A stretch of DNA of 63,885 bases, filler included, from Schmidtea nova (lineage: Eukaryota), in the NCBI GenBank assembly GCA_044892505.1. It is 4 parts of 2 records of this genome, joined end to end, with 100 filler letters (N's around TTAATTAATTAA, not from the genome) between each part and the next. Parts side by side here need not be neighbours in the genome. Positions count along the whole stretch, not along the records: positions 29,798 to 59,552 come from CM097882.1; 3 more parts are not named here. One strand, written 5' to 3'. Below are positions 9,401 to 58,306 of this stretch, one piece after another. The first letter of the stretch is position 1. Every line of letters starts with the position of its first letter. The notes under the pieces were generated by a model. That model was not told where the DNA came from, ran no database searches, and saw only the letters and a program-made list of their open reading frames with translations. The translations under genes and the position numbers were made by a program.

Positions 9401-9818
9401 GATGGAGGGGTTGAACAATAACCTTTACCTCTCAATCTACTTATTTGGGAATATTTTGTAAGTTTAAAGCTTATTTCTTTAATTTTATTTATTGACCAAT
9501 AGCTGCCATTTTCACAGACTTTAGTCATTTTTTCACTTAATAGAGCAATACCTTCATCTAAAAAGGTATCACTCGTTGGCTTTGCGGAATTTGATATTAT
9601 AAATGATTGAAATTGCTTATTCTTTTCAAATTCTACATCAATGCAAAATTTTACTTTGACATATCCCATTTTGGAAATAACTGAATTAAATTTATTTAAT
9701 AAAAGCGAAGGAATAATTAATTTATTTAAATTTAAAGAATCCACATCCATTTTAACAATGGCATGCGATTTTTTCAAATTATATTTAACCAAAGGTTCAA
9801 CAGAACCGCCATATTGGA
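6401..9818 (-). pseudogene. polB: Protein-primed family-B DNA polymerase (Maverick/Polinton/adintovirus type), split by one frameshift
   Basis: Exo I YADFE, EndoVII-like CYLC..DHDHYTGKYLGAACAKCN, Exo II IFHNLRGYD, Exo III YLKLDV, Pol A YIDINNLYG, Pol B KLLNNSLYGK, Pol C GDTDS, LRPKCY. ORFs 7627-9792 and 6401-7525 join by a 1-nt frameshift at ~7630; the frame is open into the gap at 9819. Confidence 0.92.
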
Positions 9819-9918
9819 NNNNNNNNNNNNNNNNNNNNNNNNNNNNNNNNNNNNNNNNNNNNTTAATTAATTAANNNNNNNNNNNNNNNNNNNNNNNNNN
9901 NNNNNNNNNNNNNNNNNN

Positions 9919-35923: not shown

Positions 35924-38900
35924 CTATACAATCGTTATCGTCTTTCCCTCGTATCGTTCTTCATCCTCTATTTGTTTCCAGAATTCTTTGCCTTTCGTTC
36001 TTCTTTGAAATTCTTTCTGTATCTCTTCTGGTATTTCTATTCTTTGCTTCATAACTTTGATATCTGGCCATTGTATGGCTGTCGCTTTGTTTCTCTTTCT
36101 GTATCTCCAATATACTATCATGCTTGTCGTTAGTATTCCATATGCTATTAATATTCCTATACTGATTAATCCTATTATTGTTTTTCCACTGTTTGTTGCT
36201 TTGATTTTATTCTGATTTACCTTTATCTCATTTTGGGTTTGAGCCTCTGGCTTCTTCTCCTTCTGTACTTGACTCTTGACTTTGTTCATTACTTCTTGTG
36301 TATACCAATGGTGGTTTGGTGTTTGTTTGGCGTAATTTTCTTTTGTTCGGTTTTCTACGCTTCCCGGTTTGATCTGTTGATTTAATTTCTCCGAGACTTG
36401 ATATAATCCGCATTCTGGTTCTTCTGACCCTTTTCTCGTAAAGGTACATATCGCGTATGTCTCACTTACTTCCATTTTTCTTAATTCGACTTTTTCTTTA
36501 TTCCTTATTTCTTTACAGTGGGTCAGGTTGTCTTCTTCCACTTCTGGTTTATGTTTTGTCCAACATATTCCTTCAACTGTCTGATCGAGTCCTGTTAATG
36601 TCAGAGTTCTTTCTGTCTTTGTTAACCCTTCTTCGTCGAATTTCAGGATCTCTCCTTTTTGGAATGTCTTGCAATTTTCTATTCCGGGTTGATCCTCTTG
36701 GATTCCTTTCTCCCATATACATATACTTCCTTCTTCGTTTATTTGTATTTCTTGTATTTCAATTTCCTGGTTTGTTCGTGATCCGTCGCTTGTCTGCACT
36801 TAGTATTCCCTTGGTTCTTTGTACCATCCCCAGCATATGTTGTTGCTTTGGTCTTTTCTCCTTATTGTCATAGCCATTTGTTCTATTATTATTCCTTTAT
36901 CGATACGTTTGGACATTGCTATCATTAACGCTATGCATACGAAATCTTGTTGGGGTGATACTCCTTCTCTCGTGTTATTTGTGCTTCTCTCCCCCTCTCT
37001 TGGTTTGTCCGTTGTATTTTTCATCTGAGTTGCTGGTTGATCTATTGTGTTTTTAATTTCTTTCTTTGTTGGTTTTACTTTATACCATTCAAGTCTAGGT
37101 GTTTCATATTTTTGACATACGACTGTCTTAGGTAGCCCCGACTTCTTTTCCTTTTCTATTATGCATATTCGATGCATGGTTCCTCTATCCATCCCTTCTA
37201 TTCGTACTATATCCTGGTCGGATTTTCTGATTATGCATTTTAGTGGGTTATTTTCCCCAATCGGTTCATCTTCTCTATACCAACATATTTTCTCGGCTTC
37301 CTGGACATTTATTACTTTTATCCCTGTCTGTGGGTTTGTTGCTTCTTCCCTACTGATTAATGTCAATATTACTGTTAGACTCAACCATTTTGAACTCTGC
37401 GGTAGGCTTCTGGTTCGCCTTTCATATTTTTCCTCTTTGCCTTTAATCTCTTTTATTTCCTTGTCTCCGTTGTTTATTCCTTTTTCCGCTTTTTGCTTCT
37501 TTCCCGTTTCTTCTAGTATTTCTACTCCATGGCTTGTATTATCTATATTTAGCCATTGGGTTGTCGATTTTCTTGGGTTTATCTTGCGTATCCATATAGC
37601 TGATAATGCGATTATTACTGGTATGGTCGCAGTTAATATTCCTAAGCCAATTAATTCTTTAATTTGTTTATTTTCGTCTGTTTGTATAGATTCGCTTTGG
37701 TTGAACATTATTCCGTATTGTCCCTTTAGTTTTCTCATTAATTGTTCTCGTTCCTCTTGCTTTCTTTTGACTTCTTTGATAACTTCTTCGGGTGTCCATT
37801 TTCCTTGAGGGTCGATTATTATTTTTTCTGCGTCCATTTGTTCATTCGTTTGACTTAGTTCCTTGAATTCAAGTTTCCTTACTACTCCTTTTGATGTCGC
37901 GTTTGCCGGTGTATAGTAGGTTACGCATCTTTCTTGTTGGTTTCCTAGTGCGTCCGTTTTTTCTATTGCGCATACTTCGTACTCGCTATTAAATTGTAGT
38001 TTTTCGATCTTGATTTCTTTATTTGTTTTTCTGCACTCTCTTGATTGTCTTCTTATTTGTTTCTGGACTATTATCCAACATATTTCTAATGTTTTATTCT
38101 CTATTTTCCATAGTGTCAGGGTTGCTGAGGTCCTCTTCTCGGTTTTTGTCGTAACTTCCTGGTTTATTGGTTGTTTATTGTTTTTAAGGGTAGTGGTGTA
38201 CTTCGGTTTTCCTTTGTTTCGTTGTCTTCTTTTATTTTTTCGTGTTAACGTTTTGGTTCTTGTTCCGGATGAAGTTGTATATATCCCGCACTCTAGATCG
38301 TTTATCGTTATCTGATCACTTTTCTTTACCAGACATATTTCGTAAGTTTGTTTACTTTCTAAACCTTTTATTTGTATCGTCGTTGCTCCTGTGCTTGTTC
38401 GACATTGTGGTGTCATTCTTTTATTTGTTTCCTTTTCGTACTTCCTCCAGCATACTCCTTTCACATTTGGTTCTATCTCTTTTATTTCTAATGTTATGTT
38501 TACTTTCTGCTTGATTTGTTTATTTCTCTTCCTCGTTCTCCTTCTGAACTTTATTACTTCTCCAGGTTGGAATGTTTTACATTTTGTGGTACCTTTCTTA
38601 TTTCTCTCTTTTTCTAGTAGGCATAGTTTGTACATCTTATCTGCTTTTACTTCGGATACTTTAATTACTTTATTTGTTGTTGGTTTTCGACTTTTCCTTA
38701 TTTCGTTTACGCCGACTTCCTCGTTATTCCTTGCCCAACATTTTATGTTAGTATTCTGTGTATCTTCTACTTCTGTTATTGTCATAGTTTCGATTTCCAT
38801 CCCTTCCTCTAGTCGTTTTATTATTATTAGTATGAGTACTAAACATAATACTTCCATTTGGTAGGACACTCTTTCGGTTTCGTTTGTGGAGACTCTTGCT

Positions 38901-41900
38901 TCGGGCCTCTCTATTGTAATTCGTATGGTTGGTGTTGTTTGCTTATCTATTGCCTGGGGTTTTTTGTTTTCTGTTCCCTGTGTCTCTGTTCTTCCACATT
39001 TTCCGACGATGTAATCTCCTTTGTGTGACTGTTGTACTGTCATGGTTACTTTAGGTGTTTGGTAGTTTGCGCATGCGATTGTGTTGTGTGATCTTGGATA
39101 CTTTTGTTTTCTAACGGTGCATATTCTGTACCAGGTGTCTAGATCTAAGTCATCGATCTCTATGATCTCTTGCTCGTATTCTGAGATTCTGCAATCCATC
39201 GGACTATTTTGTTCCGTGATTTTGTCCTTTTTTGACCAACATACTCGTTCGATTCCTTTTGCGTTTTTTATTTGTATTATTGCCCTTTCTTCACATGTCA
39301 TTCCTTGACTTGGGTTAATTAACGTTAAAAGCACTGTTAATAATAGTAATTCTGGTCTGAAGAATGGTTTTATGGTTGATTTATAACCTGTTCTTTGGGT
39401 GTCATTTTTATCTTCTTGGTCGTTTTTTCTTTGTTCTGCCTCTTCATTTCTTGGTCTTTCGTCTTCATTCTTCTTTTCTTCCTTGTCTCGTTTCTTGTCT
39501 TCTCCTTCATTGTCTTTTTTATCGGGTGGTTCGTGATCGTTCGAATTTTCTGAGTTGTTATCGTCGTCACTGTCTGCATTGTCATCTCCCCCTGGCCCGT
39601 CGAAAATGTCGTCCTCGACATTGATTTCTTCTATCAATTTTGCATATGCTAATGTCGTTAGATTACTTGCCTCAAATTCTTGTGTTTCTACATGCTCCGG
39701 TATGACTTTGTTGGTGGATTTGTATTCCGAGATTTCCTTTTTGGCCTTGATCCAGTTGTTGATGTACGTCTTCATCAATTCTTTCCATTTTCCTGTGTAT
39801 TTTTCTTCTTTCGGGTTGTTGGTGATTCTCAGATCTTTTCTTTCCATAAATATCATCAATATCTCTGGCCATTTATACGTTATTAAGGCACTTCTTATGC
39901 ACCAGTTTTGGTTATGTTCTGTGAACTCATTAATCCTGAATGCTGGTTCGTTGGTATTCGGATTTATCCACGTAAGTATTGCTTCTGTTAGTTCAACATT
40001 ATGCATCATTGTTAGTACACTGGGTTTCTTGACCGTATCAGTTAGGTAATCTATTTCTTCCTGATTTGAGATTGTTTTAATGAAATTGACCATTTCCCAA
40101 TTATGTGTTAATAATGCTACATCCAAAATTGAATTATCTTTATCTGTCTTTCCTGTAAGTCCTGCACCTGCTTTGTATAGTTCTTCTAACACCTTTGTTT
40201 TCGTTTTGGCCCTTGCTGCAAATACCATGAGTGTATCTCCTTTCTCGTCTATCATATTCATGTTGCTTCCGCAATTTAGCATTACTCTTGCAATTTCTAT
40301 TACCTTCCTATCTTTACCGGTTCGTAAAGCTCTATGTATTGGCATTATTCCGTCCTTTGGTAGTAGGAATGCTACTGGCATCTCCTTTTTTATAGTCGTT
40401 ATATCGTTACCATTGTATGTTCCCTTTGCGTATGCGTGTACTTTTTCAACTAATGCACCAAGTATTTCTAGTGCATGTTTACAATTTTCGAATTCCGGCA
40501 ACAATTCTTTTGCTTTTTCTTGTATCGCATCTAGTCTAGCTTGGTATGGTGCTTCTGCTTTGAAGAGTGGTGTGAGTTTCTTGTTACTTTCTCTTTCTTT
40601 TTTCTCCAAAACCTGTTTACATTTCTCGGGGTGGTTTAAGATTTTTACTAATTCATCATACTCACTTACTATCGTCTGGTATTTCTCGTTAAAATTGTTT
40701 ATGTCTTTGTATGTTATTAGTTTATCAAGTGGTTTCGCACACCATTTCCCAATCTTGTTGAATAAGGCCTCCTTCTCTTTATCGAATTTGTGTTCTTCTT
40801 CATTCTTTGTGATGTTTATGTTTCCTCTGTCTAATAAGGCTAGTAATGTCTTTTGATCGCAAGTAAATTTCAAAAGGTATCTTAACAGCGCGTTTTGTCC
40901 TTCGCTGTACACTTCATTTATGTCTAAGACCCATGCATCATCTTCTGGTCGTTTCCATTTGATTAACTTACGGATCGTATTACATTTACCAATTTTTATT
41001 GCCTCTTTGATAATATCTCCTTTTATTAATTCGTCTATTTCCCACGTGGAGTTAGCTATTATGTATTTCAGCATTGGTTGGTGAGAACTCCATATTACGT
41101 GATTCAGCACTGTTTTGTCTTCTCTATCCCGTTCTGTCCAACTGAAATGAGCTTTTATCAACAAATCTACCATTTCTTTATCTGCTTGATGGATTGCTGC
41201 TGTCATTAATGGGGTTTCCTGTTCCCGATTCCCAACGTCCAAATGTTGGTTTGTTTCTTTGGCGATTTTTAAGAATTCCTTTGCTCTTTCTATGTTTCCA
41301 CACCTTATCGCCTGGTGTAAAGCTGGTTGTCCTTCTACATCTTTCAATAAGAGTATCTCAGGGATTCTCTCCAATAACTCAGAGATAATTGGTTTGGTTG
41401 GTAATCCTTGTGCGTAACCGCTAATTATATATCTAATGTCCCTTGATATGCCTGCTTCGTCTCTAACATGCCATCTTCCCATTATCTCTCTCGCCTTCAA
41501 TATGATTTCTTTATTTCTGATTTCCTTTTGCCTTATTTTCGCTTTGTCGTCTTCGCTTGTGTTTGCTCTGAGCATATTTATCCTGGCTGTTTGTGATCTG
41601 GTTATTATTCGATTTTCTGGTGTTGTAGTTATCGTTTTAGGCACTTTCTTACATCTGCAGGTGTTTACATATATGGGTCGTACTAACGGTCGATTTATTA
41701 GCTTAACTGTGACATTATTGTCTTTTTTGTATATAATCTCATAAGGTCCTCGTCCAGGTCTTTGAAGTTTCTTAACAGTTCCTGGTATTATTTGGGGAGT
41801 TTCTATTATCACCCAATCTCCGGGTTTTAGATCGTTTGCCTTAACATTTTTCTTCTGGTCGTGCAAGTCCTTATAACTTTCTTGATAAAATTTAATGTTG

Positions 41901-44900
41901 AGTTCTGCCGTCTTCCATATTTCCTGCATTCTTTCTTTGAATTTGGTTACGTAGTCGTCGTCTTCCATATATTGCGATAATGGTGGTTGATACTCCAAAT
42001 CTATGGGCATGTTGCATTCTCTTCCATACATAAGTTGAAACGGGCTTAGTTTTGTTGCGGCGTGTATCGACATTCGGTATGCCATTAAACATAATTTTAT
42101 GTACTCGTCCCAGTCAGTTTGGTGTCTGCCGACGTAATTTGATAACATTCTAATCAGTGTACCATTGAATCGTTCTGTTTGTCCATTCGTTTGCGGGTGG
42201 TACGGTGAAGTTCTCAATTTTGCTATTCTAAAATAGTTTGTCACCTCGTTCAATAACTCACTCATAAAGTTAGTTCCTTGGTCTGTGAGTATTTGTTTTG
42301 GAGTTCCGTATCTGCAACATATTTCTTCCACCAAAAGTTTTGCTACGGTTTTTGCTTTTTGGTCTTGCATGGCAAATGCTTCCGGGAATTTCGTCAGATA
42401 ATCCATTATCACCAATATATAGATATTTCCGTTAAGACTTTCTGGTAATGGTCCTATTACGTCCATTGCTATAGTTGTCATTGGCTCTGCTGGTATTGGC
42501 ATTGGTTGTAGCGGGTTTTTCCATTTCTTCCCACTATCCTTTCTGGTTGCGCAAGTTAGACAATTTTTAATCCATTCTTTAATATCTTCTTCCATTGTTC
42601 GCCAATAATATTTTTGTCTCATCCGATTAAATGTCTTTTTCTCGGACATATGACCTCCTAATTTCCGATCGTGGTATTGGATCATTATCTCTTTCCTTCT
42701 GTTTTCCGGTAAACACATCAATCTCTTTTCACCGTCTTGTATTAACAACCATCCTTTATTTATTATATATCGATGTTGATATTTTCCTATATGTTCCTTT
42801 AATTCCTTATTATCCTTGAATATATCCATATTTCGAGATGTTAGGAACTCTATGATCTGTCCCAATTCTTTGTCTTCCTGTTGATCTTTCTTTAACTCAC
42901 TAAAATCTAAATCTTCCGCTATTAACACACAAATTCGTTGTACATCCGGATCGGTTAATTCCGGGAATGTCAGTCTTGACATACAGTCTGCATTCGCATT
43001 TGCTCGTCCTGATTTAAATTTTATGTCTGGTGAGTACTCCTGTAACTGCATTGCCCATCGCATTAATCTACTGGATGTTTCCTTGTGCTGTCCTAACCAT
43101 ACAAGCGGTTGGTGATCTGTTATTATGCAGATGATGTGTCCCCATAATAAATATTTAAAGTGTTTAATTGCTAGTATAATTGCTAACGCTTCTCGCTCGG
43201 TTACTGAGTAATTTTTCTCATGCTTTTTGAATGTTCGGCTATAATATCCGATTACCCGTTCTTTTCCTTCGTCGTCGTATTGTCCTAATACTGCTCCTGC
43301 TGCATATCCGCTTGCATCTGTTGCAAGTAGGAATGGCTTCTTAAAGTCTGGGTGTACCAATATGGGTGCGGTTATCAGTTTATCTCTCAACGTTTCAAAG
43401 GATGTTTGTTGTTCATCTCCCCATATGAATGATACATCTTTCTTGACTAGTTCCTGTATAGGTTTTGCTATTCCGGCGTAATCTTTTATAAACTTTCTAT
43501 AGTATCCACATAGTCCGAGAAATTCTTGTATCTGGGTTATTGTTTTGGGTACTGGACATTCTTTTACCTTGTCGATATTTCTGGGATCCGGTTCTTTTCC
43601 CTTTGCTGACACTATATGTCCCAGAAATGTAACCTTTTCTTTTGCCCAATCACATTTGGATGGCTTGAGTTTTAACTTCCATTGTCTAAGTCTAACGAAT
43701 ACGTCTCGAATATCCTGTAGGTGTTGTTCGAATGTACTAGAGTAGATTAATAAATCGTCGATGTAGACCATGCACTGCTTTATTCCATGGGTGACGAAAT
43801 TCATGCATCTCTGAAATGATGCTGGTGCGTTCGTTAGTCCAAATGGCATCTTTCGAAATTGATATAGGTCTCTACCGATGGTAAAGGCAGTTTTCTCTTT
43901 ATCTTCTTCCTTCATTTTTATTTGCCAGTATCCGCTTTTCAGATCTAGTGATGTAAAATATGCTGCTCCCTGTAATGTTAATAGCATTTCGTTGATGTCC
44001 GGTAATGGGTAAGTGTCTCGTTTTGTTACCGTATTCAATCTTCGATAGTCGATGCAGAATCTCTGTGTTCCATCTTTCTTCTTTACCATTACCACTGGAA
44101 ATTGCCAGGGTGAACAACTCGGTTCGATCACTTCTGCATCCAACATTTTCTTCACTTCTGCTTCCGCTACTGCTTTCTGTGCTTCTGCTAGTTTGTACGG
44201 CCTTAATGCAATTGGTGTTTCGTCTGTTAATGGTATCGTATGTAACGTGACATCACATGTTCCTAGATCTAAATCGGATGCTGCAAATATATCCTTATAC
44301 TCCATCAGCAGTTTTTCTAACTGCTGCTTTTGGTCCTTATTTAATAATTCACTATCAATATTCCAGGTTGGTTTTTTATCTTTCTCTGCCCCTTCTATTG
44401 GTATTTCGATATCCATCATTGGGGTTAATTTTCCTAGTCTTTCGTTTTCGTAGATTATTTTATCCTCCTCGTCGAAATTTACTACGTTTATTGGGATTTC
44501 TCCATTATCGTTTATGTTGACTAATCCTCTTGCCATTGGCAACGCTTTTCTTTTCTCGAATCTTTTACTTGGTTCAAAAATCATATCCCCTTGGATTGTC
44601 GGATCTATTTTTACGTAACATATTTTTTCCTTTCTTGCCGGTATTATCATTTGCTTTGAACTCGTTACCTTGGCTTCTATTGCGCATATTTGTCCGGTGC
44701 GATCTTTTAATCTCATTGTTCCGAGGTCGATTACAATCTCTTTAAATAACGCTGGCATCAAATCTGTTCCGATAATGCAAGGTACGCTTAACGCTGGTAT
44801 GACTGCTACGTACGTATCGATTTCTGTGTTTAAGTGGCGTATTTTTACCCACCATCTTCCTGCTACTTCTACAATTTCTTAGCTACATGCAATTACATGG

Positions 44901-45154
44901 ACGTTTGTTCTTTCTATTTCCCGTCTTTGCTCTTGTGGTATCCATTTGATGTCGATGGCGGAAATGTTTGCTCCAGTGTCGATCATTGCTTCGATTTCCC
45001 TTCCGTTAATCTCTATTGTTGTGGTTAACACTGGACCTGTGTTTGATGACATTACGGCGATCGTATGTGCGTCTCCTTGTGGATCTACACTTCTACATCT
45101 TCTCATTTTATAATCTTCTGGTATCATGGGGTATACATTTGTCATTGGCATCAT
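35924..45154 (-). CDS. pol: Pol polyprotein PR-RT-RNaseH-IN extended by 2x ankyrin modules and 2x signal/FN3-like/TM modules; two in-frame stops (44879-81, 36800-02)
   Basis: IDTGA..CIIGTDL protease; RFCIDYRRLN, FRKMPFGLTNAPASFQ, YIDDLL RT; TDASG, EREALAI, TDHQPL, NANADCMSR RNase H; H..GGH..CLTC, AMDVIGP, TDQGTNF, YHPQTNGQTERFN, GPYEI integrase. ORFs 44879-45154, 36800-44761 and 35924-36799 share one frame. Confidence 0.95.
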
Positions 45155-48100
45155 CTACATCGTGGTCGTTCTTCCTCCTTGTAGTGGTTCTTGATACATT
45201 GTTGGTGGAGGTGCGTAACATTTCCACGCGTCGGCTGGATTCTTTTCGATGTATTGTGGTGCTTGGTTCTTATACACTTGTCCTCCCTTATAGTCGTCAT
45301 CGTCATCATCGTCGTCACTCGAATCATTTTGGGTTTTATATCCTTTCATCCTTTCCCATAAACCTTTTCTTTCTCTCTTGAGCTGTTGTCTTGCTTGTTC
45401 GTCATTCATTATCTTTTTAAATTTTCGTCCTACTTCTTCATCTGTTCCCTTCATTTTTGCGAGTATCTTCAACAATCTCTTTATTCGATGTATGTCCTTT
45501 GAGTGTCCGTGCAACACCATCGTTTTCGCAAGGAATGGTAAAAACCCTACTACCATTTTCCAATTCACTTTCTTTTCTCTCTTGTAGATATCGAAACACG
45601 CTAATATTTGCGTTATTATCACTCTGACGATTTGTATTATTAATATAACCCCCAGTATTCCCGCCATCATTTGTCCGAATATCAGGAATCTTCCCCACAT
45701 TGCTTTCATCATATTTTCTGTGGCTTTCTTGAAATGTGTTGGTGACAACAACAGTTCATAATTCGGTCCTTCTCGATAATTCGTTCCTCCCGTTATCGTT
45801 ACGATATTTGACAGTAATGCTTCTCTTCTCGCCGGGAATAATATATTCTGCCTTGCTGCTTCTAAATCCTTTGGACTATATATTCCGTTGTTTGAGACAT
45901 CTACGTCGCTGAATTGCCTATCTTTTGACAACTGCATTAGCTTGAATTCTCTTGGTGCTATCACTTCGGCTCTTCCTGGGAACATAACCCATTTACCATC
46001 TCGTTTCTGATAAAGCGGTCCGTACGCATTACTACAGTTGAATGGATTTGGTTCAAAGCCTGGTGGATTGATGATTCTCGTCACCAGTTGAACGTATCGT
46101 ACTTTTCCTTTGTAATCGATTTCTAACTCATTTGTACAGGTTCCAGGTTTCAACTGTGTTGTTGCTGCTAGCGACGCGTGTGTCTTTTCACAAATGTATA
46201 CATACATTGCTTCTCCAACCACTCTTCCGAAATGTCCTTCTCTCAGTGGTAATAATGGCATCGCGCTATCTGGATTCGTAATCGCTACGGCCAACTTTGT
46301 CTTTAATATTTCTCGATTCAGTATACAATCATTGTTTATCAGATCGTAGTACACTTTTTGTAATGAGGCTTGTCCTCTATGGAATAAGAAATCCATTTTA
46401 TTATTCACATACAAGTGTAGTTTGATATCCATTGTGTCAATTTTGGGTTTCGCATTCGGCACTTCTTGTTTTGACACATATATTCCTGGATAATTCGTTT
46501 CGTATACCGTTGTACTACACTTAAGGGTTGCTTTACCTTTTATGAATCTCATTCCCACATCCTGATTTGTGGTTATCAACACTGATGGTGTGGCTCTCAT
46601 CTCTATCCGTTTTTCTCTATGATCTGGTTTCAATTGTCTTTTATTCTCTAAAGCTTCCTTGAGATGCTTTGCTCTAGCTTTGTCGTCATCGTCTTCTTCC
46701 TGGAACGTTTTTCCTTGGATTTCGTCGAACTTTGCTCCTTGCAGCAGTTGTAATTGACATTCGTTCACCTTTGGTTTGTACACTAATGTTGACATTCCCG
46801 TTTGACACATGCTCCTGTCGATTTTACACATGGATAACGTTTTCATTTCTCCCGTTGTGGGTTCGAAGAATGCTTCGTAGCTTTTCAGTTCGACTATATA
46901 CGTATCCATCACCACTAAATTGGTTGCGAGTGCTCCGAATATCGGGTAGGTTTCTCCTTGACAATATACTTCTCCTCCCGTAATCCGTCCTGCTACATAG
47001 TATGTCTGTTGCAGCATCATTCCTGGCTTTCCTTTTATCTTGATTTTATCTCTTGTTGTTACTTCTCCATGTTTAAACAATGCTTCACAGTCTTCTCCTT
47101 GTAATATGATTGGTTCTCTTTCCGTTCCTGGCATGACAATTGCTGAATAATGTCCTCTCCCACAGTAGAATGCGAATCTCGTCTTCTGCACCTTACATTC
47201 ATTCACCATTGTCTTTATGAGTTCTGCTTCTTGATACACGTGGTACCATTGTTCCTTTTTAATCTCCTTTAACTCTACTGGAGTTGCATCTTTGCATTGC
47301 TCCGTACCTCTCAATGAATACTTTTCACCTAATGCCATCCGATCGCAATCAAATACTTCGAATGCTGTTGCGCCATCGGTACTAATCATCCATATCAACA
47401 TCATCATTATGATAGAACTCAGATTCATTGATGACTTGGCGTTTCCTGTTCCTGTTTGTTCTTTTTCTAGTTCTCCCAATATTTTTTCGAATTTCTTTTT
47501 CATATTCTTGGCTTGCGTTTTCTTCTGGTTAGTTTTTATAAATGTTTCCAATCCTCCTTTGTTAATGACGTAGGGTTCTATTTCTCTAGCTATAATCTTT
47601 GCGGTATTTTTTATATGTCTCTCTAATGCAGTGGGTTTTGGTCGGCCTCTACTCAGTGTCAACAGATTGTAGATAGTGTATGCAATGGCTATTACGTATT
47701 TGTTATCTGTTTCCGCTCCTTCTGTCAATTTCTTTATTAACGTAGTGGTTCCTTGCCAGTCTAAATGATTTGACTTCGTCTTTTCTTTTATGAATTCCGG
47801 TAAGATGGGTGCGATTGCGCTGTGTAGTGACTTCGCCTTTTCGCTTATTTCAGTTATACGCCAGTATATTCTTAATTCCGGATCAATTGTTGCTAATATT
47901 TCCATTATTGTTTTCGATATCCATTCCTCCCCTTGACATTTTGGTGTTGTCTCTTTTTCTTTTGTCTCCGCGATTTTATTTAATTTCCTTAGACACAATT
48001 CCCATTGATCTTGTCTCTTTTCATCCTTATTTCTGATGACTACATTCGCTGGATCTGTCTTGGGTCTACCTCGAGGTCGTCTATCCATTCCTGTACCTGT

Positions 48101-48505
48101 TTCCACAAACCTTGTTGCCTGTCCGGTTTCTTCCGTGACATCTCTGGGTTCGTTAGCTCTTTCTTCTAACCATCTTTCCATTTCCTGGGTTAATTGTACA
48201 TTTTCGACATTCGCTCCTCTTGGTTCGTCTTCCGTCAAATCGTTTACCTCTTCTATTATTATCTCTTCTTCGACTTCTGTTTCTCCGGTGTTGGTTACTT
48301 GTACTGTCGTAGGTAATTCTTGTATTCTCTTGAAAATGTTGTCGTCTTTTTCCTTTGTTAATTCGGTTAGCTCTTCTATCATGTCGTCGCTGTCTGTTAA
48401 TATTTCGTCCACGTCGTATGGTTGTGGTGGAGTCCTTTCTCTATTCCCTCTGGGTGTTGTCTCCGATCGTCTTGAACTTGTCCCTGGTATCAGTACTGAT
48501 TTCAT
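45155..48505 (-). CDS. env: Bcl-2-like domain + chuvirus-like (class III) envelope glycoprotein
   Basis: After an internal signal-like stretch (MNLSSIIMMMLIWMISTDGATA): FEVFDC..SL...C, ECKVQKTRFAFYCG, YVNNKMDFL, DCILNREIL, VGEAMYVYIC, CTNELEI, GIYSPKDL..ILFP and a C-terminal TM. This matches the Cys/motif pattern I recall for Chuviridae glycoproteins. N-terminal EIEPYVINKGGLETF resembles Bcl-xL BH2. Confidence 0.85.
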   Translation of the reverse strand: MKSVLIPGTSSRRSETTPRGNRERTPPQPYDVDEILTDSDDMIEELTELTKEKDDNIFKRIQELPTTVQVTNTGETEVEEEIIIEEVNDLTEDEPRGANVENVQLTQEMERWLEERANEPRDVTEETGQATRFVETGTGMDRRPRGRPKTDPANVVIRNKDEKRQDQWELCLRKLNKIAETKEKETTPKCQGEEWISKTIMEILATIDPELRIYWRITEISEKAKSLHSAIAPILPEFIKEKTKSNHLDWQGTTTLIKKLTEGAETDNKYVIAIAYTIYNLLTLSRGRPKPTALERHIKNTAKIIAREIEPYVINKGGLETFIKTNQKKTQAKNMKKKFEKILGELEKEQTGTGNAKSSMNLSSIIMMMLIWMISTDGATAFEVFDCDRMALGEKYSLRGTEQCKDATPVELKEIKKEQWYHVYQEAELIKTMVNECKVQKTRFAFYCGRGHYSAIVMPGTEREPIILQGEDCEALFKHGEVTTRDKIKIKGKPGMMLQQTYYVAGRITGGEVYCQGETYPIFGALATNLVVMDTYIVELKSYEAFFEPTTGEMKTLSMCKIDRSMCQTGMSTLVYKPKVNECQLQLLQGAKFDEIQGKTFQEEDDDDKARAKHLKEALENKRQLKPDHREKRIEMRATPSVLITTNQDVGMRFIKGKATLKCSTTVYETNYPGIYVSKQEVPNAKPKIDTMDIKLHLYVNNKMDFLFHRGQASLQKVYYDLINNDCILNREILKTKLAVAITNPDSAMPLLPLREGHFGRVVGEAMYVYICEKTHASLAATTQLKPGTCTNELEIDYKGKVRYVQLVTRIINPPGFEPNPFNCSNAYGPLYQKRDGKWVMFPGRAEVIAPREFKLMQLSKDRQFSDVDVSNNGIYSPKDLEAARQNILFPARREALLSNIVTITGGTNYREGPNYELLLSPTHFKKATENMMKAMWGRFLIFGQMMAGILGVILIIQIVRVIITQILACFDIYKREKKVNWKMVVGFLPFLAKTMVLHGHSKDIHRIKRLLKILAKMKGTDEEVGRKFKKIMNDEQARQQLKRERKGLWERMKGYKTQNDSSDDDDDDDDYKGGQVYKNQAPQYIEKNPADAWKCYAPPPTMYQEPLQGGRTTTM

Positions 48506-48536
48506 CGAGCTCGGCGTACTTATACTTCCGTGTGGT

Positions 48537-51500
48537 TTATGGTTTACGTTTCAATGGTTGACCCGCTATTGCTTCCATTGTCAAGGTATTCATGAGATCT
48601 AGTTGTGCTGGCGTTATTCCAATTTCCAAACTGTTATCTAATGATCGTCCTTGGTGTTGTAAATGGAATGGTGGTTCGTATCTCAATTTCTTTTTAATAT
48701 CTCGGATTTTTTCTGCTATTCCTACCCAAAATTCTTCCTTATCCTTGTTTGGATATATTATTCTTAAATGTACTTTTTGTGGAATTTCCTGCGAGAATTC
48801 TTGATTTCTCCATTTCCTAATTACGTGGTCTAGTTGTTCCGGACACCACTCGTTAACTCTTTTATATTCTGCGATTGCTTTTGCCACTTTACGCAAGCAT
48901 GTTATATCTTCTCCATTAACCACGAAAAAATCTGCGAGACCTTTTATTACTTTTCTCTTACCGTGCGCATTAGTTTTTAATATTTCGACAAATTCTTCCG
49001 TTTTTTGCTTTTCCTTTTCTAACCATATAGCCGCTGTTTCTGGTCCATCTAGGTCTATTGGCGTAGCTTTCCTTGTTACCATGCAAACCCTTCCCATTTC
49101 TGGTTCGCAGTCATCTTCCATTCCTTTTTCATATTCTTCTTCATATTCACCTTCTTTTGGTTCCCAACATTTTCCTTGCTCGTTCCATTGTTTTTCTACG
49201 GGTGTTCGTATTCGTCTGTTGAGATTGAGTTCTTCCAATACATTTTCCCACTCCGGCCAAATCCGCCAATTTCGATAGATGTCTACTATTTGTTGTAATT
49301 TGCGCACAACTTCTTTTTGTCGTTCCCGTTCTTTTTTCTCATCTTTAACAGTTTCCCTTGGTGTATCGTCCATTCTGATCACGTGGATTGTTTGGTAATT
49401 ATCCCATATGCCAATCTTATATAGTCGTCTCTCATCGTGATCCCACAATATATGTTCGTTATATTTCATGATTATATCGTCTTCCCATTCGTCTTCTAGT
49501 TCTCTTTGCACCAGTGTCTCGTTTATGACCTTTACTAATTCTCTTATGGTGCAATCTGCTACCACTTCAATTTCTTTGGTATCCTCATTAGGTAACTCTA
49601 TTGAAATTTTTAGATCCGCTATTTTCCCTTGTCTGAACATTGTTTTTCCCATTTTTGCGATTAATTTGTCGTGTGAGATCTGTGACCATCTCGTGTGACT
49701 TGTGTCACGTATGCACTCGATGCATCGTTTCAGCTTCTCGTATTCGCTTCTCATTAACTCTTTTCTATGTTTTTTGACTTGTGGTATGATTTGTTCTATC
49801 AGGGAATTTAGATTTTTTCGTAAGATTCGTCCTTTCTCGTATTCTAACCGTGGTTTTATTCTCCTTTCAAAGCACGTGTTTGCTTCATTTGCAACTTCTT
49901 GTAGGTTCTCTTCTTCCTTTTCATCGCATATTGATAACAGGGTTACTTCTCCTGGCCATATACCTGTTTCTACTAAGTGCGTTCTTTTCTTTACGAGTCT
50001 ATTCTGCGAATAGATGAATTTGTTTTTATATGAGCTCCCTAGCCTGTCCTCTACCCATCTGTAGATATCGTCTGTAAATGGAGTTTTGATCCAGATTCTT
50101 GGTGTAGATGTATTTATCATTATTGAGATGGTGTAATTGAGGAGTGGTTCCTCTATTAATTTCCCTACGTATCGATTTAACATATCTACTTCTCGGTCTT
50201 GTAACCATTCTTTGTAGTTCATTTGCAATAATGCTTTCATGAATTTCCTATATTGTTTCTTGTCCATGAATTCTTCGTTATATATTACTTCTAGCGAATT
50301 ATCTAGTAATTTCTGGATTTCATCTACTTTTATCTGAGTAGGTTCTGAGGTCTTTATTACTTTTATCTCTTTGTTTTCGTCTTCGGGTTCGTTTAATATG
50401 TCTCCTGCTAGGCTACTGATATCACTATCTTCTTCCTCATCGGAAAACTCTCTGGTGGTATTTCTTAACATATTAATGTGTGCTATTTGGTTCGTTTCCC
50501 CCTGTATATTCTCCGTTGGTTCTGGTTCGTTTTTGTCAATCTCTGGTGTTGGTTCACTCTTGTCCTCTATTACTTCGACTTTTCTCATTTTCTTCTCCAA
50601 CTGGTCTATCTCTTTCAGACGTCTTCTTATCATTTTTCCTTTAAATATTCGACTGATTCGGGTTTCGTGACGTATTCGTGCTGGAGTTTTCTCTGGTTCT
50701 ATTTCTTTGATAATCATCACGTTTCTTTTTGTTTCTACTACTCCCATGTTTTCCCATATATCCGTTAACTTCAACTTTACTTCTGGCGCACCTTCTATTT
50801 GTAAGAACGCTTCTCTGGGAAGTTTCGTTACTCCTGGAACCATCTGGTTTACTTTATTGAACAGTATTTCCACCTCTTCTTTTACGTTATATTGGAATCG
50901 GAACATATGGTTGTTGGGCATGATTACCATCATTCCTTTTTTCCAAATTTTCCTCCTCTCTTCCTGGTTTATCTCAGTTTCTACTTCCTTTTCTATTTCT
51001 TTTTCTGCTTCCTTATCGTCTTGTATTACTCCTTTTCGACTTCCATTGTCGGTTGGATTCGAATTTATTTCTAATGTGGTTTCTTTCTCTGTTTGCTTTG
51101 TTGCTCTCATCATGTTAATTCTTAGAGGTTGTCGCTCTCTTTCTTGCTGTTTTTGTTCATCTTCTCTTTGTATTCTTGCCCATTCCTGAGCGTGTCGTGC
51201 TTGACTTTCTCGATTCAACCGTTCGTTTTCACTTTCTATCTTTCTCATCATGCTAATTTGTTGTTGATTGGTTTGCGGATTTCCTCTCGTCGTGTTGTTT
51301 ATAAGTTCCGTCAACCTTTGGACTTCTTGCATCAAATGTATTTCTTTGGTGGTGGTTTTGTTCTGACTATTGTTATTATTGACTTGTTGGTTTCCATAAT
51401 CTTGTCGGTTTACGGTATTTGTTTGATTTCCGTAATTTTGTCGGTTTCCGTTGCTCTGCCAATTTCCTCGCTGGTTACTTTTTTGTCCGCAATTTCTTGA

Positions 51501-52910
51501 ATAGTGACCAGGTCGTCCGCAGTTAAAACAGGTTATCGTAGAACATCTACTCTCCGAGTGTCCTTTAACTCCACATTTTCCGCAATTCAAATTTTGATAA
51601 CATTCCTGCTGCCAATGTCCCAACTTTTCACATGTTTTACATTGTTTTGTTTGTCCTTGAGGGTTGTAATTGTTTTGGTTTCCAAAGTTCTGCACTTTAT
51701 TTCCTTCATTCCTTCTTTGAGGGGGTGGTCGGTTTAATTGTTGCGAATTTGGAATGTGATTGTTGAGATTTACTTCTGGTTCAGTTTGTTCTGTGTCCAT
51801 GGCTAAATAAATTCTGCCCTCACTTCCTATCATATGCAATTCGAATCTGTTAGGTGTTTCTAACGCTTGATCTATGGTTTTGCATCCTTGGCATCCAACT
51901 TGCGCTCTTATGTCAGGTCTTCTTAATCCTCCTATGAAGATGGCTGCCATTAGTTCCTCGTTTATTGGACTCCCATCCTTAAATACCGATTTTGCTAATT
52001 TTTTCAGTTCGCTCGCGTATACCGCGTTAGACTCATTCATCTTTTGTTTTCTCATCGAAAATTCTATGAATGCTTCGCTTAGCTCTTTATTTATTCCAAA
52101 TGTTTGTTGGAAAAAGTCCTTTATCGCTGGCCAGTTTGCAGGTGGATTGGTACCATTTTTCGCTTCCAAATATAGGTCCAATGCACTATCTTTCAAATAT
52201 AGCTGAATTCTGCTTACCGTTGTTTCGGCTTTCCATTTGCATACTTCCACGAATATGCCAAATTCCTTTAAAAAGGTTTCTAATTTACTTGCATCTCCGT
52301 TAAACGGTTCTCCTGAAAATTTATCCTTTATTTCTTCTCTTGGTTCACCCATTTCAATTCCGCTGTCTTGAGTTGTTTTACTTTCGTTTCCTCTTGTTTC
52401 TAGTTCGTTGTTATGTTCGTCTTCTGTTTCACTCGAGCTTGAATCGCTTTCTGTTTCTCTTACTACTTCGTTATCCGATATTATATTTTCGTTATCACTC
52501 TCGTTGGTTTCTACTTCTGGTTCTACCTCGTTTTCTACTTCTTCGATATTATCGTTGTTAGTTTCGCCGATTTCTCCTTCTTGTTCTATCTCGTGTTCTA
52601 TTTCTTCGATATTATCGTTGTTAGTTTCGTCGATTTCTATTTCACTTGTTTGGTTCTCCTTGGGTTCCGCTTGGTTTTCCTTATTACTTGAGCTGTTGCT
52701 TACTACCGACAATTTATCGTTTTCGATAATCGCTTTATCTCTTATTATCTTCCTTGCTTTACTCCCTTGTAGATTTTTGTTGTTATCTTTGCCGGCTTTC
52801 TTCTTTTTTGTTGGGTTTGTTGTAGTACTAGTTTTGTCTTTTTTGTTAATATCGCTGCCGACTTTCTTTTCTGTTGGCTTTATTACGACACTCTTTACTC
52901 CTGTTCTCAA
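48537..52910 (-). CDS. gag: Gag (capsid-like, three CCHC knuckles) with a ~900-aa C-terminal extension including two ubiquitin-like domains
   Basis: FNGDASKLETFLKEF..RKQKMNESNAVYASELKKL..FIGGLRRPDIR capsid pattern; CKTCEKLGHWQQEC, CGKCGVKGHSESRC, CFNCGRPGHYSRNC. The ORF start is a TTG; the first ATG is near 52352. Confidence 0.92.
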   Translation of the reverse strand: MRTGVKSVVIKPTEKKVGSDINKKDKTSTTTNPTKKKKAGKDNNKNLQGSKARKIIRDKAIIENDKLSVVSNSSSNKENQAEPKENQTSEIEIDETNNDNIEEIEHEIEQEGEIGETNNDNIEEVENEVEPEVETNESDNENIISDNEVVRETESDSSSSETEDEHNNELETRGNESKTTQDSGIEMGEPREEIKDKFSGEPFNGDASKLETFLKEFGIFVEVCKWKAETTVSRIQLYLKDSALDLYLEAKNGTNPPANWPAIKDFFQQTFGINKELSEAFIEFSMRKQKMNESNAVYASELKKLAKSVFKDGSPINEELMAAIFIGGLRRPDIRAQVGCQGCKTIDQALETPNRFELHMIGSEGRIYLAMDTEQTEPEVNLNNHIPNSQQLNRPPPQRRNEGNKVQNFGNQNNYNPQGQTKQCKTCEKLGHWQQECYQNLNCGKCGVKGHSESRCSTITCFNCGRPGHYSRNCGQKSNQRGNWQSNGNRQNYGNQTNTVNRQDYGNQQVNNNNSQNKTTTKEIHLMQEVQRLTELINNTTRGNPQTNQQQISMMRKIESENERLNRESQARHAQEWARIQREDEQKQQERERQPLRINMMRATKQTEKETTLEINSNPTDNGSRKGVIQDDKEAEKEIEKEVETEINQEERRKIWKKGMMVIMPNNHMFRFQYNVKEEVEILFNKVNQMVPGVTKLPREAFLQIEGAPEVKLKLTDIWENMGVVETKRNVMIIKEIEPEKTPARIRHETRISRIFKGKMIRRRLKEIDQLEKKMRKVEVIEDKSEPTPEIDKNEPEPTENIQGETNQIAHINMLRNTTREFSDEEEDSDISSLAGDILNEPEDENKEIKVIKTSEPTQIKVDEIQKLLDNSLEVIYNEEFMDKKQYRKFMKALLQMNYKEWLQDREVDMLNRYVGKLIEEPLLNYTISIMINTSTPRIWIKTPFTDDIYRWVEDRLGSSYKNKFIYSQNRLVKKRTHLVETGIWPGEVTLLSICDEKEEENLQEVANEANTCFERRIKPRLEYEKGRILRKNLNSLIEQIIPQVKKHRKELMRSEYEKLKRCIECIRDTSHTRWSQISHDKLIAKMGKTMFRQGKIADLKISIELPNEDTKEIEVVADCTIRELVKVINETLVQRELEDEWEDDIIMKYNEHILWDHDERRLYKIGIWDNYQTIHVIRMDDTPRETVKDEKKERERQKEVVRKLQQIVDIYRNWRIWPEWENVLEELNLNRRIRTPVEKQWNEQGKCWEPKEGEYEEEYEKGMEDDCEPEMGRVCMVTRKATPIDLDGPETAAIWLEKEKQKTEEFVEILKTNAHGKRKVIKGLADFFVVNGEDITCLRKVAKAIAEYKRVNEWCPEQLDHVIRKWRNQEFSQEIPQKVHLRIIYPNKDKEEFWVGIAEKIRDIKKKLRYEPPFHLQHQGRSLDNSLEIGITPAQLDLMNTLTMEAIAGQPLKRKP

Positions 52911-53520
52911 CGGGATTACTTTTGTATACTCAATTTTCCTGTCTTATCTCTTATCGTTTTCTGATTCTTCTTGTTTGATTGATTGATTTGATTGATTTGT
53001 ATATCTAAAATACAAAGGTCCTCAACGATACATTATTGTTGTCGTCGCGCTTTTATTCCATTTCTTTCGGGATTACTTATTACTGGGTTTTCATTATTTC
53101 CCCATTCCCAGATTCCCCTTTATTTTTAGTCTATTTAATTTATCTATAGACTGGTCACAATTATCTATTTATGTCGTAATAATTATCTATACTTTTATAA
53201 ATCAATTACTTTTCCCACAGTTTCCCAATTTATTGGTCGCTCGAGCGCTCTAATTCCTTGAGTCTTTCTGACTCGTTTATCATTATTTATCATCTCTATT
53301 CATTATTCCCTGCTAGCAATCGTTTTACTCATTCTGCCGGTTGCTCCGGTCAGCCCAAATTTTTTCTATTCTCCTTGCATGCTTTACTTAAGGTTGCATA
53401 ATCAGCTTTACTCGCATTTCTTAACTACTAGTGCGCACTATTCTAAATCTCGTCGACGATTACACTATGGGTCTATATTCCCTCTGTTACTAATTACCCG
53501 GATATCTCTATAATTCTCTA

Positions 53521-53776
53521 TGGCTCTTTTGGCCTCAATTTTAATATCTCACATGGCTCTATTGGCCTTAATTTAATATCTCAACTGGCTCTACTGGCCT
53601 CAATTTAATCTCTCATATGGCTCTATTGGCCTCAATTTAATCTCTCACATGGCTCTATTGGCCTTAATTTAATATCTCAATTGGCTCTATTGGCCTCAAT
53701 TTAATATCTCGATTGGCTCTATTGGCCTCAATTTAATATCTCAATTGGCTCTACTGGCCTCAATTTAATATCTCAA
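53521..53776. repeat. 32-bp tandem array (8 copies) in the element leader
   Basis: TGGCTCTA(T/C)TGGCCTCAATTTAATATCTCA.. units start at 53521, 53554, 53586, 53618, 53650, 53682, 53714 and 53746. Confidence 0.95.
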
Positions 53777-53816
53777 TAATGCCTAGCTAGGTCATTCAAT
53801 ATGGCTCATTGGCCAC

Positions 53817-53955
53817 AACCCTTTGTTTCAAGGGACAACCGCTAATAACCCTTTGTTTCAAGGGACAACTCTAATAACCCTTTGTTTCAAGGGACAACTC
53901 TCATAACCCTTTGTTTCAAGGGACAACTCTCATAACCCTTTGTTTCAAGGGACAA
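53817..53955. repeat. 29-bp tandem array (5 copies) with an internal hairpin
   Basis: AACCCTTTGTTTCAAGGGACAA at 53817, 53847, 53876, 53905 and 53934. Confidence 0.95.
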
Positions 53956-54427: not shown

Positions 54428-54931
54428 TTACAAATAAACTATAATTTTTTCATTCACAGTAAAGTTGCACATCGGACACCGGTCACACTTGCTGGCACAG
54501 ATCTTACAAAAACGGAAATGTCCGCAAGGTAAAAACATAATTTGTATCTCGTTGTTTTCACATATATAGCACTGTCGGTATTTTTTCGCTGCTTCTACTC
54601 CTTGTATTCTCCATCGATTGTATGTTGGGGTTAATTGTTGTTCTATTTGTCTGCATCTAATGTTTAGTTCCGCAGTCTCTAGTCGTGCTCTGTACCATTT
54701 GTAGCGGGTTTTTATGTCGATTTTACTTGTTCCTTCTGTTATCTTTATTAATTCATCAGTTTCCTCGGTCTGTGTTGTGGGTTCTTGAAATTCAATTTCT
54801 CTAAATCGGTTTATTTTCTTGCCAATTGTTGCTAATGTTTCGCTTTCTGTGTTGAGAAATTCTTCGATTTCTTTCAGTTTTTCCTCCATTTGCTGAATAA
54901 ATAATCGTTTTAACTTTGTTGTTTTTATCAT
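54428..54931 (-). CDS. Coiled coil + C-terminal IAP-type RING finger protein (167 aa)
   Basis: CYICENNEIQIMFLPCGHFRFCKICASKCDRCPMCNFTVNEKIIVYL at the extreme C-terminus, the IAP/XIAP-type RING pattern; no BIR domain. Confidence 0.88.
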   Translation of the reverse strand: MIKTTKLKRLFIQQMEEKLKEIEEFLNTESETLATIGKKINRFREIEFQEPTTQTEETDELIKITEGTSKIDIKTRYKWYRARLETAELNIRCRQIEQQLTPTYNRWRIQGVEAAKKYRQCYICENNEIQIMFLPCGHFRFCKICASKCDRCPMCNFTVNEKIIVYL

Positions 54932-54935
54932 TTTT

Positions 54936-55021
54936 AAAGTAGTAATATGTCTCGTTTTGTGTCTTTTAATATTTATTTAAAGTAGTAATATGTTTCGTTT
55001 TGCATCTTTTAATATTTATTT
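54936..55021. repeat. 43-bp tandem duplication just upstream of the RING ORF
   Basis: AAAGTAGTAATATGT(C/T)TCGTTTTG..TCTTTTAATATTTATTT twice. Confidence 0.85.
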
Positions 55022-55261: not shown

Positions 55262-58200
55262 TGCTGGGTTCATGGACGGTGTAGTAAACATTCAAATGAT
55301 TGCCAGGGATCTCCCATCCATGATCATGCATAAATAGTCGTAAGCTACACTCGAGCGCCCTTGATTATTTCCCTTGATAACCAAGTTGGTGTTGCGCAGG
55401 GTGGTTAAACAATGAGGGGCAGGTGAGCACTATTGCTAGGACTACTCCCCCTTTATGTTTACGGGTTCACGCGGCCGTAGAAGGACTTACGCAATTATTG
55501 TTCTATTGTGTGTGTGTGATGTTATGTATTTATCATAACAAAAAAAAAACAAGCAAGCAAAACGAAACTACGAATTTGATAATATTTAAATTCTTTATCG
55601 CTACTCCTTTCGTTGTGTGACGGGTAATTTAATTATATGAATTAGGTAATCGAAGGAAATACTTAGGAAATAACAACAACAACAAAAACGAACAAAGATT
55701 TAATTAACTCCAAAATCTGACATCATATTCTATCTGCTACAGAAATTCTTTGAAAATTCCTTCAGGAGGGAATATCTCTGATAACCACTCGGCTTCCGAC
55801 ATTTCTGCCATAGTGGTTACTTGTGCTTGCAGCTGCTGAGAGAACAGCTTTCTTTGGCGACGGCGCTTGGAACCGATTCGCTTTCGCTTGTTCGTTTTCC
55901 CGACGGGGTTTGGCGTAATGGCGGCTTTCACCCGGCTCTGCACTGTGGTTGCTTCGAGCCCATCGGTATCCGTACTGACCGAGCAGGCCACTTTCTGTTC
56001 TCCTACCCATTTCTGGTAGGTGATGGGTCGGATTTGTGCTTTCAATTCGGACTCGATAAATGAAGTCGTCACCGAATGGAGACATCGGCGCAACTCAATT
56101 TTTGTTGCTTCCCATTCGGTGCGATAATCGTCAGCTGTCTTTTGAGCCCTTTCCGTCCGACTCATCTGCTCCTTCATACGGGCTGGGGCGAACCAGCTGG
56201 TCCGTAAATACTGAATCTGAGCTTCTGCCTTGGCTCGTAATGCTTTTTCCTGATTTAGCTCTTTTTCTAAGGCTCGGCGGATCCTCCACGCCTTGTCCAA
56301 TTCTCGCTGTTGGCTAGTTTCCGTCATACTAAATAACAAACCCATTTTATGATGCAGCAATTATGTTACCAACGATTAATATTATCCGTCGAGTGTAAAA
56401 ATTATAGGATTAAATAAATAGAAATACATTTAACTAAGAACAAGCAAAACACAGATCAACACCATTTAATTTATAGAAACATTTAGTTCATAGTAATGTG
56501 AATAGAACTTTTAGTGGCAAACGCTTCGCTTGAGGCCGTGAACCGGGGTAATATGCAACCCGTGATTGACTGGATCTCGTCGGATGTGAGCCATCGAACA
56601 GTTTAGTTTGGGGCGTCCATGGTCCGCTTTCGGCAAGTGGTTCAGAATCAAACCGAATTGAAGCAGCATGTGGGGCGAGACGTATCCCCAGTGGATTACG
56701 GTCGTTGGGTTGCCTGCGATGTCCGTCAACACTATGATGAATCGAGCTGTCGTTTCGGGGTCTCTTTCGTCTGAATTTTTCCATCCGGGGCCTCCTCGAT
56801 ATATGATGGTATCTAATCCACCGGTTCAAATCGAAAATGGACATTTTTTCCCAGTTCCCGTCTCCACTTGTACATCAACGCATTTAGCGTTCTTAGAAGT
56901 TCCTGTGGAAGCGACTTCAATTTCTTCTGTTGCGTCCGGATTAGAGGATTTTCGTCCCGTGCCACACGACGTTGGGTTGTTAGAAATTCATCCAGTATCG
57001 TTGATTTCATCTGAGAAAATAATAATGCTAATAAAATTTACTGTGACGAATCCGCAAATTTTGGTGAGACCTGATGAAATGTGCTCCTCTCGTTGATCAA
57101 CAAAACAAAAAAAATATGAAAAGGAGGAATAAAAAAAATTTTCTAAGCTATTCAATTAACACCGTCGCTATATACAGCGATCGGGATACGTTTATTAAAA
57201 ATTTACATATTATCACCTGCGCTATTTACAGCGATCAGGTTACGGTTTTACTTATTCAATCAGTAGTGTCAATCTGATTATGTTGTTATTTATATCTTAA
57301 TTAAAACTATCGTTGAAATGTCGAAATCGTCTCGGTGTGTCCGGACATTATTTCGATCAGCTATGTGGATTCGAAAAATCGTGTGCATATGCTAAATCGA
57401 TTTAGTTGACATGATAATTGATACTGTAGTTTATTCTCCCCTGTCTGATCGAACGTTAATTAACTAATGTTAAACACTGTCTACTAATTTTACCCGTGTC
57501 CTTGTCCCTGTACAACTTTACCGTAAAGTTAAACCTCTGATAAAAATTAAATTAAATAAAAAATACCAATAGAAACTCTGCTCACCATCTTGTGGAACGG
57601 TGAAATCCCACATTTACGGCTTACTCCCTCGCAGCGTGAGCTACTGAGGAAGTATATTTATCATATCATAAACTAATAGCATAAGAAAATAGAGCAATTA
57701 ATAGTAATAAATTATATTAAATGAAATGAATGGGAATCATGTAAAACATATCATAAAATTAGTTCAAATACAATACAACAAAATTTACTATTTAAATCCA
57801 AGATGCAGCGTTTCCAAAATTTTACACAATATTTGTCGTATCAAAGTTGATGTAACTGACTGTTATAGATCAGTTCGGTAGCTAAGTTTTTAGGTGGTGT
57901 CTTTATGATTTTTGGATCGGTATTTATACTGATCCAGTTGGTCAGATTGACCAATCAGGATCAGGCCGTCCATCAAAGTAATTTTGTTATTTTATTTTAA
58001 TATAAACCATTTTAAATTTCCGGTTCAGATTTCTCGCTGGGTGGTCCCGATTTTTTCAAGTAATTAACCAATTAATTGTACTTTTATTTGATTTTATTTG
58101 TAATTTTCTTATTTCAGACCCCCATACTGCTCGTTCCCGTGTCAATTTGATTTTCTTCCTTTGCTGGAAATTTAGTAATTATTATTTATTATTTTATTTT

Positions 58201-58306
58201 GATTTTTAATTTAGGTTTTTTGAATGTTTTTGTGGTTATTATTTGTATTTATTGTTTAAATTAGTACAATATTTTTGTCTTTTTAGACCAATTGGTGGGC
58301 CCAACA
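55262..58306 (-). repeat. 5' LTR, 3,045 bp
   Basis: Starts TGTTGGG and ends CCCAGCA (6/7 terminal inverted repeat), followed directly by the PBS; repeated at 29798-31951. Confidence 0.92.
55737..56345 (-). CDS. LTR-encoded ORF-B (~202 aa): coiled coil, Arg-rich motif, acidic/aromatic C-terminus
   Basis: ATG at 56345 (MGLLFS..); KRKRIGSKRRRQRK; EMSEAEWLSEIFPPEGIFKEFL. The visible part of the 3' LTR copy (29798-29989) is identical. Confidence 0.7.
   Translation of the reverse strand: MGLLFSMTETSQQRELDKAWRIRRALEKELNQEKALRAKAEAQIQYLRTSWFAPARMKEQMSRTERAQKTADDYRTEWEATKIELRRCLHSVTTSFIESELKAQIRPITYQKWVGEQKVACSVSTDTDGLEATTVQSRVKAAITPNPVGKTNKRKRIGSKRRRQRKLFSQQLQAQVTTMAEMSEAEWLSEIFPPEGIFKEFL

Follow-up and report, generated by a model that had tools for sequence, protein, structure and literature searches.

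Organization of the element

We analyzed a 63,885-nucleotide stretch of DNA from the planarian Schmidtea nova (GenBank assembly GCA_044892505.1), made of four parts of two records joined by filler letters and called here the window; its positions 29,798 to 59,552 come from record CM097882.1. This part contains, on the minus strand, a young, since-damaged copy of a Burro-type giant Ty3/gypsy retrotransposon, whose coding region between positions 35924 and 52910 is the subject of this work. Two direct repeats, at 29798-31951 and 56154-58306, have 2,154 nt in common with 7 mismatches and 1 gap, and the long terminal repeats (LTRs) are 99.6% identical. Repeat comparison delimits the 5' LTR (55262..58306, minus strand, about 3.0 kb), the inner edge of which is placed by a candidate primer-binding site starting at 55255, while the 3' LTR (29798..31951, minus strand) is cut by the assembly gap at 29698-29797. 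Because the left LTR runs into this gap, the length of the element from LTR end to LTR end, at least 28.5 kb, is only a lower bound. The coding strand is strongly A-rich and the flanks are AT-rich.

In coding order, the element carries an open reading frame (ORF) with a RING finger, gag, env, a split protease, reverse transcriptase (RT), RNase H, integrase, ankyrins, a long tail and four accessory ORFs. The gag-frame ORF (48537..52943, minus strand) counts 1,468 codons from stop to stop, with its first ATG at 52352. It encodes a capsid-like region and three CCHC knuckles, read in the translation, and then about 900 amino acids (aa) in which ubiquitin-like stretches were noticed by eye; the ORF gives a PF00098 match and also matches the gag regions of relatives. 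The env-frame ORF (45155..48550, minus strand) contains an acidic linker, a weak Bcl-2-like stretch, an internal signal-like segment, a class III fusion protein of Monjiviricetes type (PF24664, E 2e-69) and a transmembrane segment at aa 963-979. Behind it lie the N-terminal half of an aspartic protease with its DTG motif, detected with Pfam (44879..45154, minus strand), and the pol ORF (36800..44878, minus strand), which comprises the C-terminal half of the protease, RT, RNase H, integrase, ankyrin repeats (PF12796, E 2e-13), a first tail unit and the start of a second one. A spacer is present between the protease and RT, where no Pfam dUTPase match was found. The last ORF (35924..36799, minus strand) provides the rest of tail unit 2, FN3-like by a weak lead, and ends with a transmembrane segment.

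Four breaks in the coding region

The coding region is interrupted at four places. The gag-frame ORF ends in a TAA within an exact tandem 7-mer (break 1, 48533..48546, minus strand) and shares 14 nt with the env-frame ORF, which is read in another frame; the ORF map confirmed this coincidence of gag stop, duplication and frame change, which a first-pass annotation made from the window alone had pointed out. Such exact tandem 7-mers are no rarity in themselves, with two in the whole span and 3.0 on average in 300 codon shuffles, but the chance of finding one in a given 14-nt overlap is about 0.0025. We consider break 1 a probable lesion. From env onwards, the env ORF, the N-terminal half of the protease, pol and the last ORF share one frame and are parted by single stops, as the same annotation had stated: a TAG between env and protease (break 2, 45155..45157), a TAA in the protease (break 3, 44879..44881) and a TAA in tail unit 2 (break 4, 36800..36802), all on the minus strand. 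The contig depth presented below indicates that breaks 2 and 3 are not common to the family. Break 3 does fall inside the protease and break 4 inside a repeated unit, again in agreement with the earlier claim. When the stop is read as X, the Pfam RVP profile spans break 3 from position 7 to 95 of 101, and tail unit 2 aligns to unit 1 across break 4 with 24% identity (E 2e-48), which makes of the latter stop another presumed lesion.

The reconstructed reading spans 16,987 nt. Position 52910 holds a TTG, and an in-frame ATG first occurs at 52352; the codon count is therefore only approximate, and of the 5,660 codons first proposed the span stands, but not the exact number. We estimate the joined reading at roughly 5,500-5,700 codons.

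State of the breaks in other copies

Other copies of the family were sampled through short contigs from four sequencing runs of one study, whose library type is unrecorded, with thousands of contigs per run. At the env/protease TAG, 99.6-99.7% of the contig depth differs from the stop codon in each of the four runs. The residual depth, about 35, 7, 11 and 10 per run, has the window's letter at the most divergent base and is about the size of one copy, though depth is no copy number. At the stop inside the protease (44879), all the contig depth differs from the window in the four runs. Since nearly all the depth differs at the env/protease stop, we conclude that it is a lesion and not a read-through signal. 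When the RNA behind this TAG was folded, no structure stood out (z -0.39 against 200 shuffles, pseudoknots being outside the model). The first-pass annotation had supposed that some stops were lesions, which is borne out by those at 45155 and 44879, and that the TAG could be a programmed read-through site, which these data refute.

Among the 40 differences listed, out of 1,210, the 39 near-fixed ones that fall within ORFs are distributed 15/10/14 over codon positions 1/2/3, the one outside ORFs being excluded; they look like unselected damage. From the divergence of the LTRs, about 28 post-insertion substitutions are predicted in 17.4 kb.

Relatives of the proposed polyprotein

A protein search limited to lengths of 2,153-6,853 aa yielded 73 proteins, and further ones were collected by a search without length filter and a cluster look-up. 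Twelve of the 73 possess both the fusion domain and an RT, and in all twelve env precedes protease, RT, RNase H and integrase within one ORF. We then considered the 52 fetched proteins that match env strongly (E<1e-25 and an identity of 26% or more). The C-terminal end of env is reached in 33 of them, 26 of which continue into protease/pol within the same ORF; in P0093, which together with one other relative is closest in env at this end (54%), the ORF runs into a protease. The N-terminal end is reached in 30; in 19 of these the frame extends upstream for a further 300 aa or more, and in 13 this upstream part matches the gag ORF of the window. In P0092, the last 100 aa of that ORF are matched in frame with env (27%, E 2e-8), and P0088 displays gag, CCHC, ubiquitin-like, Bcl-2-like and env regions all in one ORF. 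The uninterrupted ORF of P0237 encodes 4,844 aa with env, several proteases, ankyrins, pol and a long tail; this protein falls into one 90% cluster with the shorter pieces P0075 and P0238, so that whole and split copies coexist in a related family. Finally, in a quick tree of RT-RNase H sequences (76 rows), the window element belongs to a 19-row clade (SH-aLRT 99) together with 17 env-first single-ORF proteins and the fragment P0238.

Tail, accessory genes and surroundings

The tail (35924-39350, minus strand) is a tandem duplication. Each unit is made of signal-like, beta-rich repeated and transmembrane parts, and the two units are 24% identical. For unit 1, Atlas points to FN3 clusters at 0.86, which is a lead only. 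The last tail piece gave a single-sequence model with a predicted local distance difference test score (pLDDT) of 38, and in the fold search nothing reached E 0.001, the rows obtained being weak Ig-like ones. The Bcl-2-like stretch has no direct Pfam match, while the homologous stretch of P0078 matches PF00452 (E 0.00096). With a 4-row profile, Bcl-xL chains make up 54 of 56 PDB rows at a best E of only 0.06; taken alone, the stretch gave no PDB sequence match, no named Atlas lead and a single-sequence model with a pLDDT of 42. The ubiquitin-like stretches of the window were recognized by eye; three stretches searched gave no Pfam match, and P0088 matches PF00240 weakly (E 0.03). All three labels, Bcl-2-like, ubiquitin-like and FN3-like, should be taken as weak leads.

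Downstream of the tail, an accessory block (32155..35801, minus strand) encodes a 119-aa product, a TRAF-like protein, a 363-aa coiled-coil protein and a 189-aa membrane protein. The four ATGs stand 1-3 bases behind an AG in a mostly AT-rich context that resembles, by eye, a splice acceptor, and these ORFs are probably separate genes on spliced RNAs. The TRAF-like ORF (33973..35352, minus strand), in which the domain search found RING, TRAF zinc finger, coiled coil and MATH, is complete and intronless; its best homologues, 24-37% identical, come from many phyla. Mobile TRAFs of this kind could inflate the TRAF counts of host gene sets.

At the other end of the element, the accessory RING ORF (54428..54976, minus strand) has an IAP-like end with a C-terminal RING finger (PF13920, E 4e-11), and a Pfam search found no BIR domain in it. 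The leader between this ORF and gag contains two tandem arrays, a 32-nt unit repeated 8 times and a 29-nt unit repeated 5 times (window 53508-53955). An ORF of 207 codons lies within the LTR (55737-56360, minus strand) and has no Pfam match. A short motif (such as INMLR, IHLMQ or ISMMR) recurs on the minus strand at apparent domain borders in 48540-52943 and 36803-44878, six times in the gag ORF and also directly behind the integrase; these are candidate sites for the element's protease. The window element has one aspartic-protease-like domain, and two to seven occur per polyprotein in P0004, P0007-P0010, P0076, P0077 and P0237, some of them behind the integrase.

As to the surroundings, a LINE-type (long interspersed nuclear element) RT lies to the left of the element (28650-29600, plus strand) and a zf-RVT match to its right (58504-59322, plus strand), which suggests that the element was inserted into a LINE. 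A piece of its left flank recurs, 96% identical, at 125-1157. The region 6401-9870 (minus strand), with matches to family B DNA polymerase and to an endonuclease VII-like protein, is probably a Polinton/Maverick fragment.

Discussion

Judging from these sequences, intact members of the family very probably make a single polyprotein of some 5,500-5,700 residues, in which gag, env, protease, RT, RNase H, integrase, ankyrins and tail follow one another. The giant ancestral ORF supposed by the first-pass annotation is well supported, because the relatives are continuous, two of the four breaks are missing from nearly all other copies and the layout has been published for Burro; its exact length is not established.

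Several observations weigh against this reading. The length limit of the protein search favours fused forms. Seven of the 33 relatives that reach the end of env show no protease behind it, and five of these seven end within 60 aa; for them, ends of contigs, damaged copies and genuine stops are indistinguishable. The relatives, at about 30-55% identity, are also distant and tell what is usual in the clade, not the state of the window's own family; among those retrieved, none with the tail of the window element was found. The contig evidence comes from four runs of one study and from contigs only. The contig comparison lists five indel differences with a share of at least 10%; a 7-letter gap at the junction of gag and env is not among them. 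Likewise, the 40 differences listed of 1,210 include none at 36800-36802. These two blanks are weak, because the same listing also missed the real difference at the env/protease stop. Breaks 1 and 4 are presumed lesions only.

One may also wonder whether gag is a separate ORF throughout the family, with Env-Pol being reached through a programmed +1 frameshift where gag stops or being translated from a spliced RNA of its own. Separate expression of gag and pol is common among Ty3/gypsy elements, and the lack of a 7-letter gap at the junction among the indel differences of the four runs is in line with this idea. We nevertheless regard it as improbable, since the frame change coincides with a tandem 7-mer expected there by chance at only about 0.0025, P0088 and P0092 are continuous over the junction, and no stimulatory structure stands behind the gag stop (z -0.06). 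Moreover, no acceptor-like AG was seen by eye before the Met codons of the env frame, although each of the four downstream accessory ATGs has one; this is a weak argument against a spliced RNA for env. Burro, in addition, is described with the same domains in one ORF (PMC6431247). A stop retained by the family at 36800, with tail unit 2 being produced either truncated and secreted or through read-through, would agree with the absence of any difference at this codon among the 40 listed of 1,210, and with the small indels at 36843-36849, which show that copies do vary nearby. This seems very unlikely, because the stop interrupts tail unit 2 midway and the unit remains homologous to tail unit 1 on both sides of it; moreover, the first Met of the ORF behind the stop comes at aa 109, and no structure follows (z +0.54).

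The position of the env/protease TAG, in frame between the two domains and directly followed by ATG codons, is the one that a gammaretrovirus-like read-through or stop-restart setting the ratio of Gag-Env to Pol would require. With 99.6-99.7% of the depth differing in all four runs, 26 of 33 relatives open at this point and a fold z of -0.39, this mechanism is refuted for the family at large and has practically no chance of being correct; only a small sub-lineage absent from the runs could retain the stop. Finally, the copy could be intact and the breaks due to errors of assembly or sequencing, as the many gaps of the assembly and the absence of contig depth carrying the window's protease-internal stop might suggest. 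Such errors are a most improbable explanation, given that the residual depth at the env/protease stop agrees with the window, as one real copy would, and that the number of private differences fits the age of the LTRs.

We thus retain the single polyprotein and propose how such a chain could be handled. Hydrophobic segments are found at the end of env, twice in the tail part of pol and at the end of the last ORF, and signal-like segments were noticed by eye before env and before each tail unit. The Gag part would lie in the cytosol, and the internal signal behind it would thread Env into the endoplasmic reticulum (ER). Past the transmembrane segment of Env the chain would be back in the cytosol, allowing protease and pol to fold there, before the later signal-like and transmembrane segments thread both tail units. 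Cutting of this chain by the element's protease together with the host signal peptidase would yield Gag, Env and Pol in equal amounts and with no recoding. This scheme raises the questions of how a particle would be assembled when capsid, envelope and enzymes are made in equal amounts and lie on both sides of the ER membrane, and of whether such elements move from cell to cell.

A bolder hypothesis, which we hold to be rather doubtful, is that the family is an infectious planarian retrovirus with flavivirus-like processing. Its tail would correspond to two captured FN3-type cytokine-receptor decoys, the Bcl-2-like, TRAF and IAP-RING proteins would form an anti-death and anti-immune cassette, and its multi-pass polyprotein would be among the longest of any retroelement. 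Whatever the fate of this hypothesis, a tempting false lead, the read-through between env and protease, is removed and the Burro group gains a longer member.

Comparison with known systems

In gammaretroviruses, gag and pol are separated by a fixed in-frame UAG located just ahead of the protease, with a pseudoknot behind it. The TAG of the window element differs in that it is not common to the other copies and no such structure was seen behind it. A parallel can also be drawn with the nematode endogenous retroviruses NERV, reportedly described by Sacco et al. in 2022, in which env is said to precede pol as in the window element. They are likewise said to have a continuous gag-env-pro-pol ORF, but they live in nematode hosts, are much smaller and are not known to carry the cargo of the window element.

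Errantiviruses of the order GAG-ENV-POL with an HSV/gB-type envelope have been reported in Platyhelminthes, Nematoda and Bryozoa (PMC13524379). The six Schmidtea entries in the supplement of that paper span 14.5-18.0 kb. In the passages compared, these spans are not stated to be single ORFs and no ankyrin or tail cargo is described; the gene order and the class III env are those of the window element, and one entry, of 16,937 nt, is close to its 16,987 nt.

The nearest published counterparts are Burro1-4/GYPSM1 of Schmidtea mediterranea and a Burro-like element of Dugesia tigrina, which are about 30 kb long (over 30 kb for Burro/GYPSM1) and have long LTRs (PMC6431247, 2019). According to the parts of this paper that were compared, Burro/GYPSM1 encodes in one ORF of 4,873 or 5,140 aa Gag, CCHC, MATH, ubiquitin-like, BCL2, env, protease, RT, RNase H, integrase and ankyrins; it is presented there as the first case of an env in frame between gag and pol, and a dUTPase-like segment between protease and RT was assigned by HHpred. 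The novelty that the first-pass annotation implied for a single gag-env-pol polyprotein is thus lost to this earlier publication. When the Burro-type features were sought in the window element, six were found, none was contradicted and five could be decided neither way, the likeness being one to the published description. Like Burro, it is a giant LTR element with the order protease, RT, RNase H, integrase, a CCHC-bearing Gag, a mononegavirus-related env between gag and protease, ankyrins, and MATH/TRAF and RING cargo. It differs in that no BIR was found in it, in that this copy is broken at four places, and in that its complete TRAF gene, with RING, zinc finger and MATH, lies downstream of pol, while the TRAF of Burro is described inside ORF1 or in an upstream ORF. 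Furthermore, its span is about 10-15% longer, and the duplicated tail of signal, FN3-like and transmembrane parts behind the ankyrins is absent from the Burro description, as far as the compared passages go. The overall design was therefore already known, and it is the length and the duplicated membrane tail of the Schmidtea nova element that may be new.

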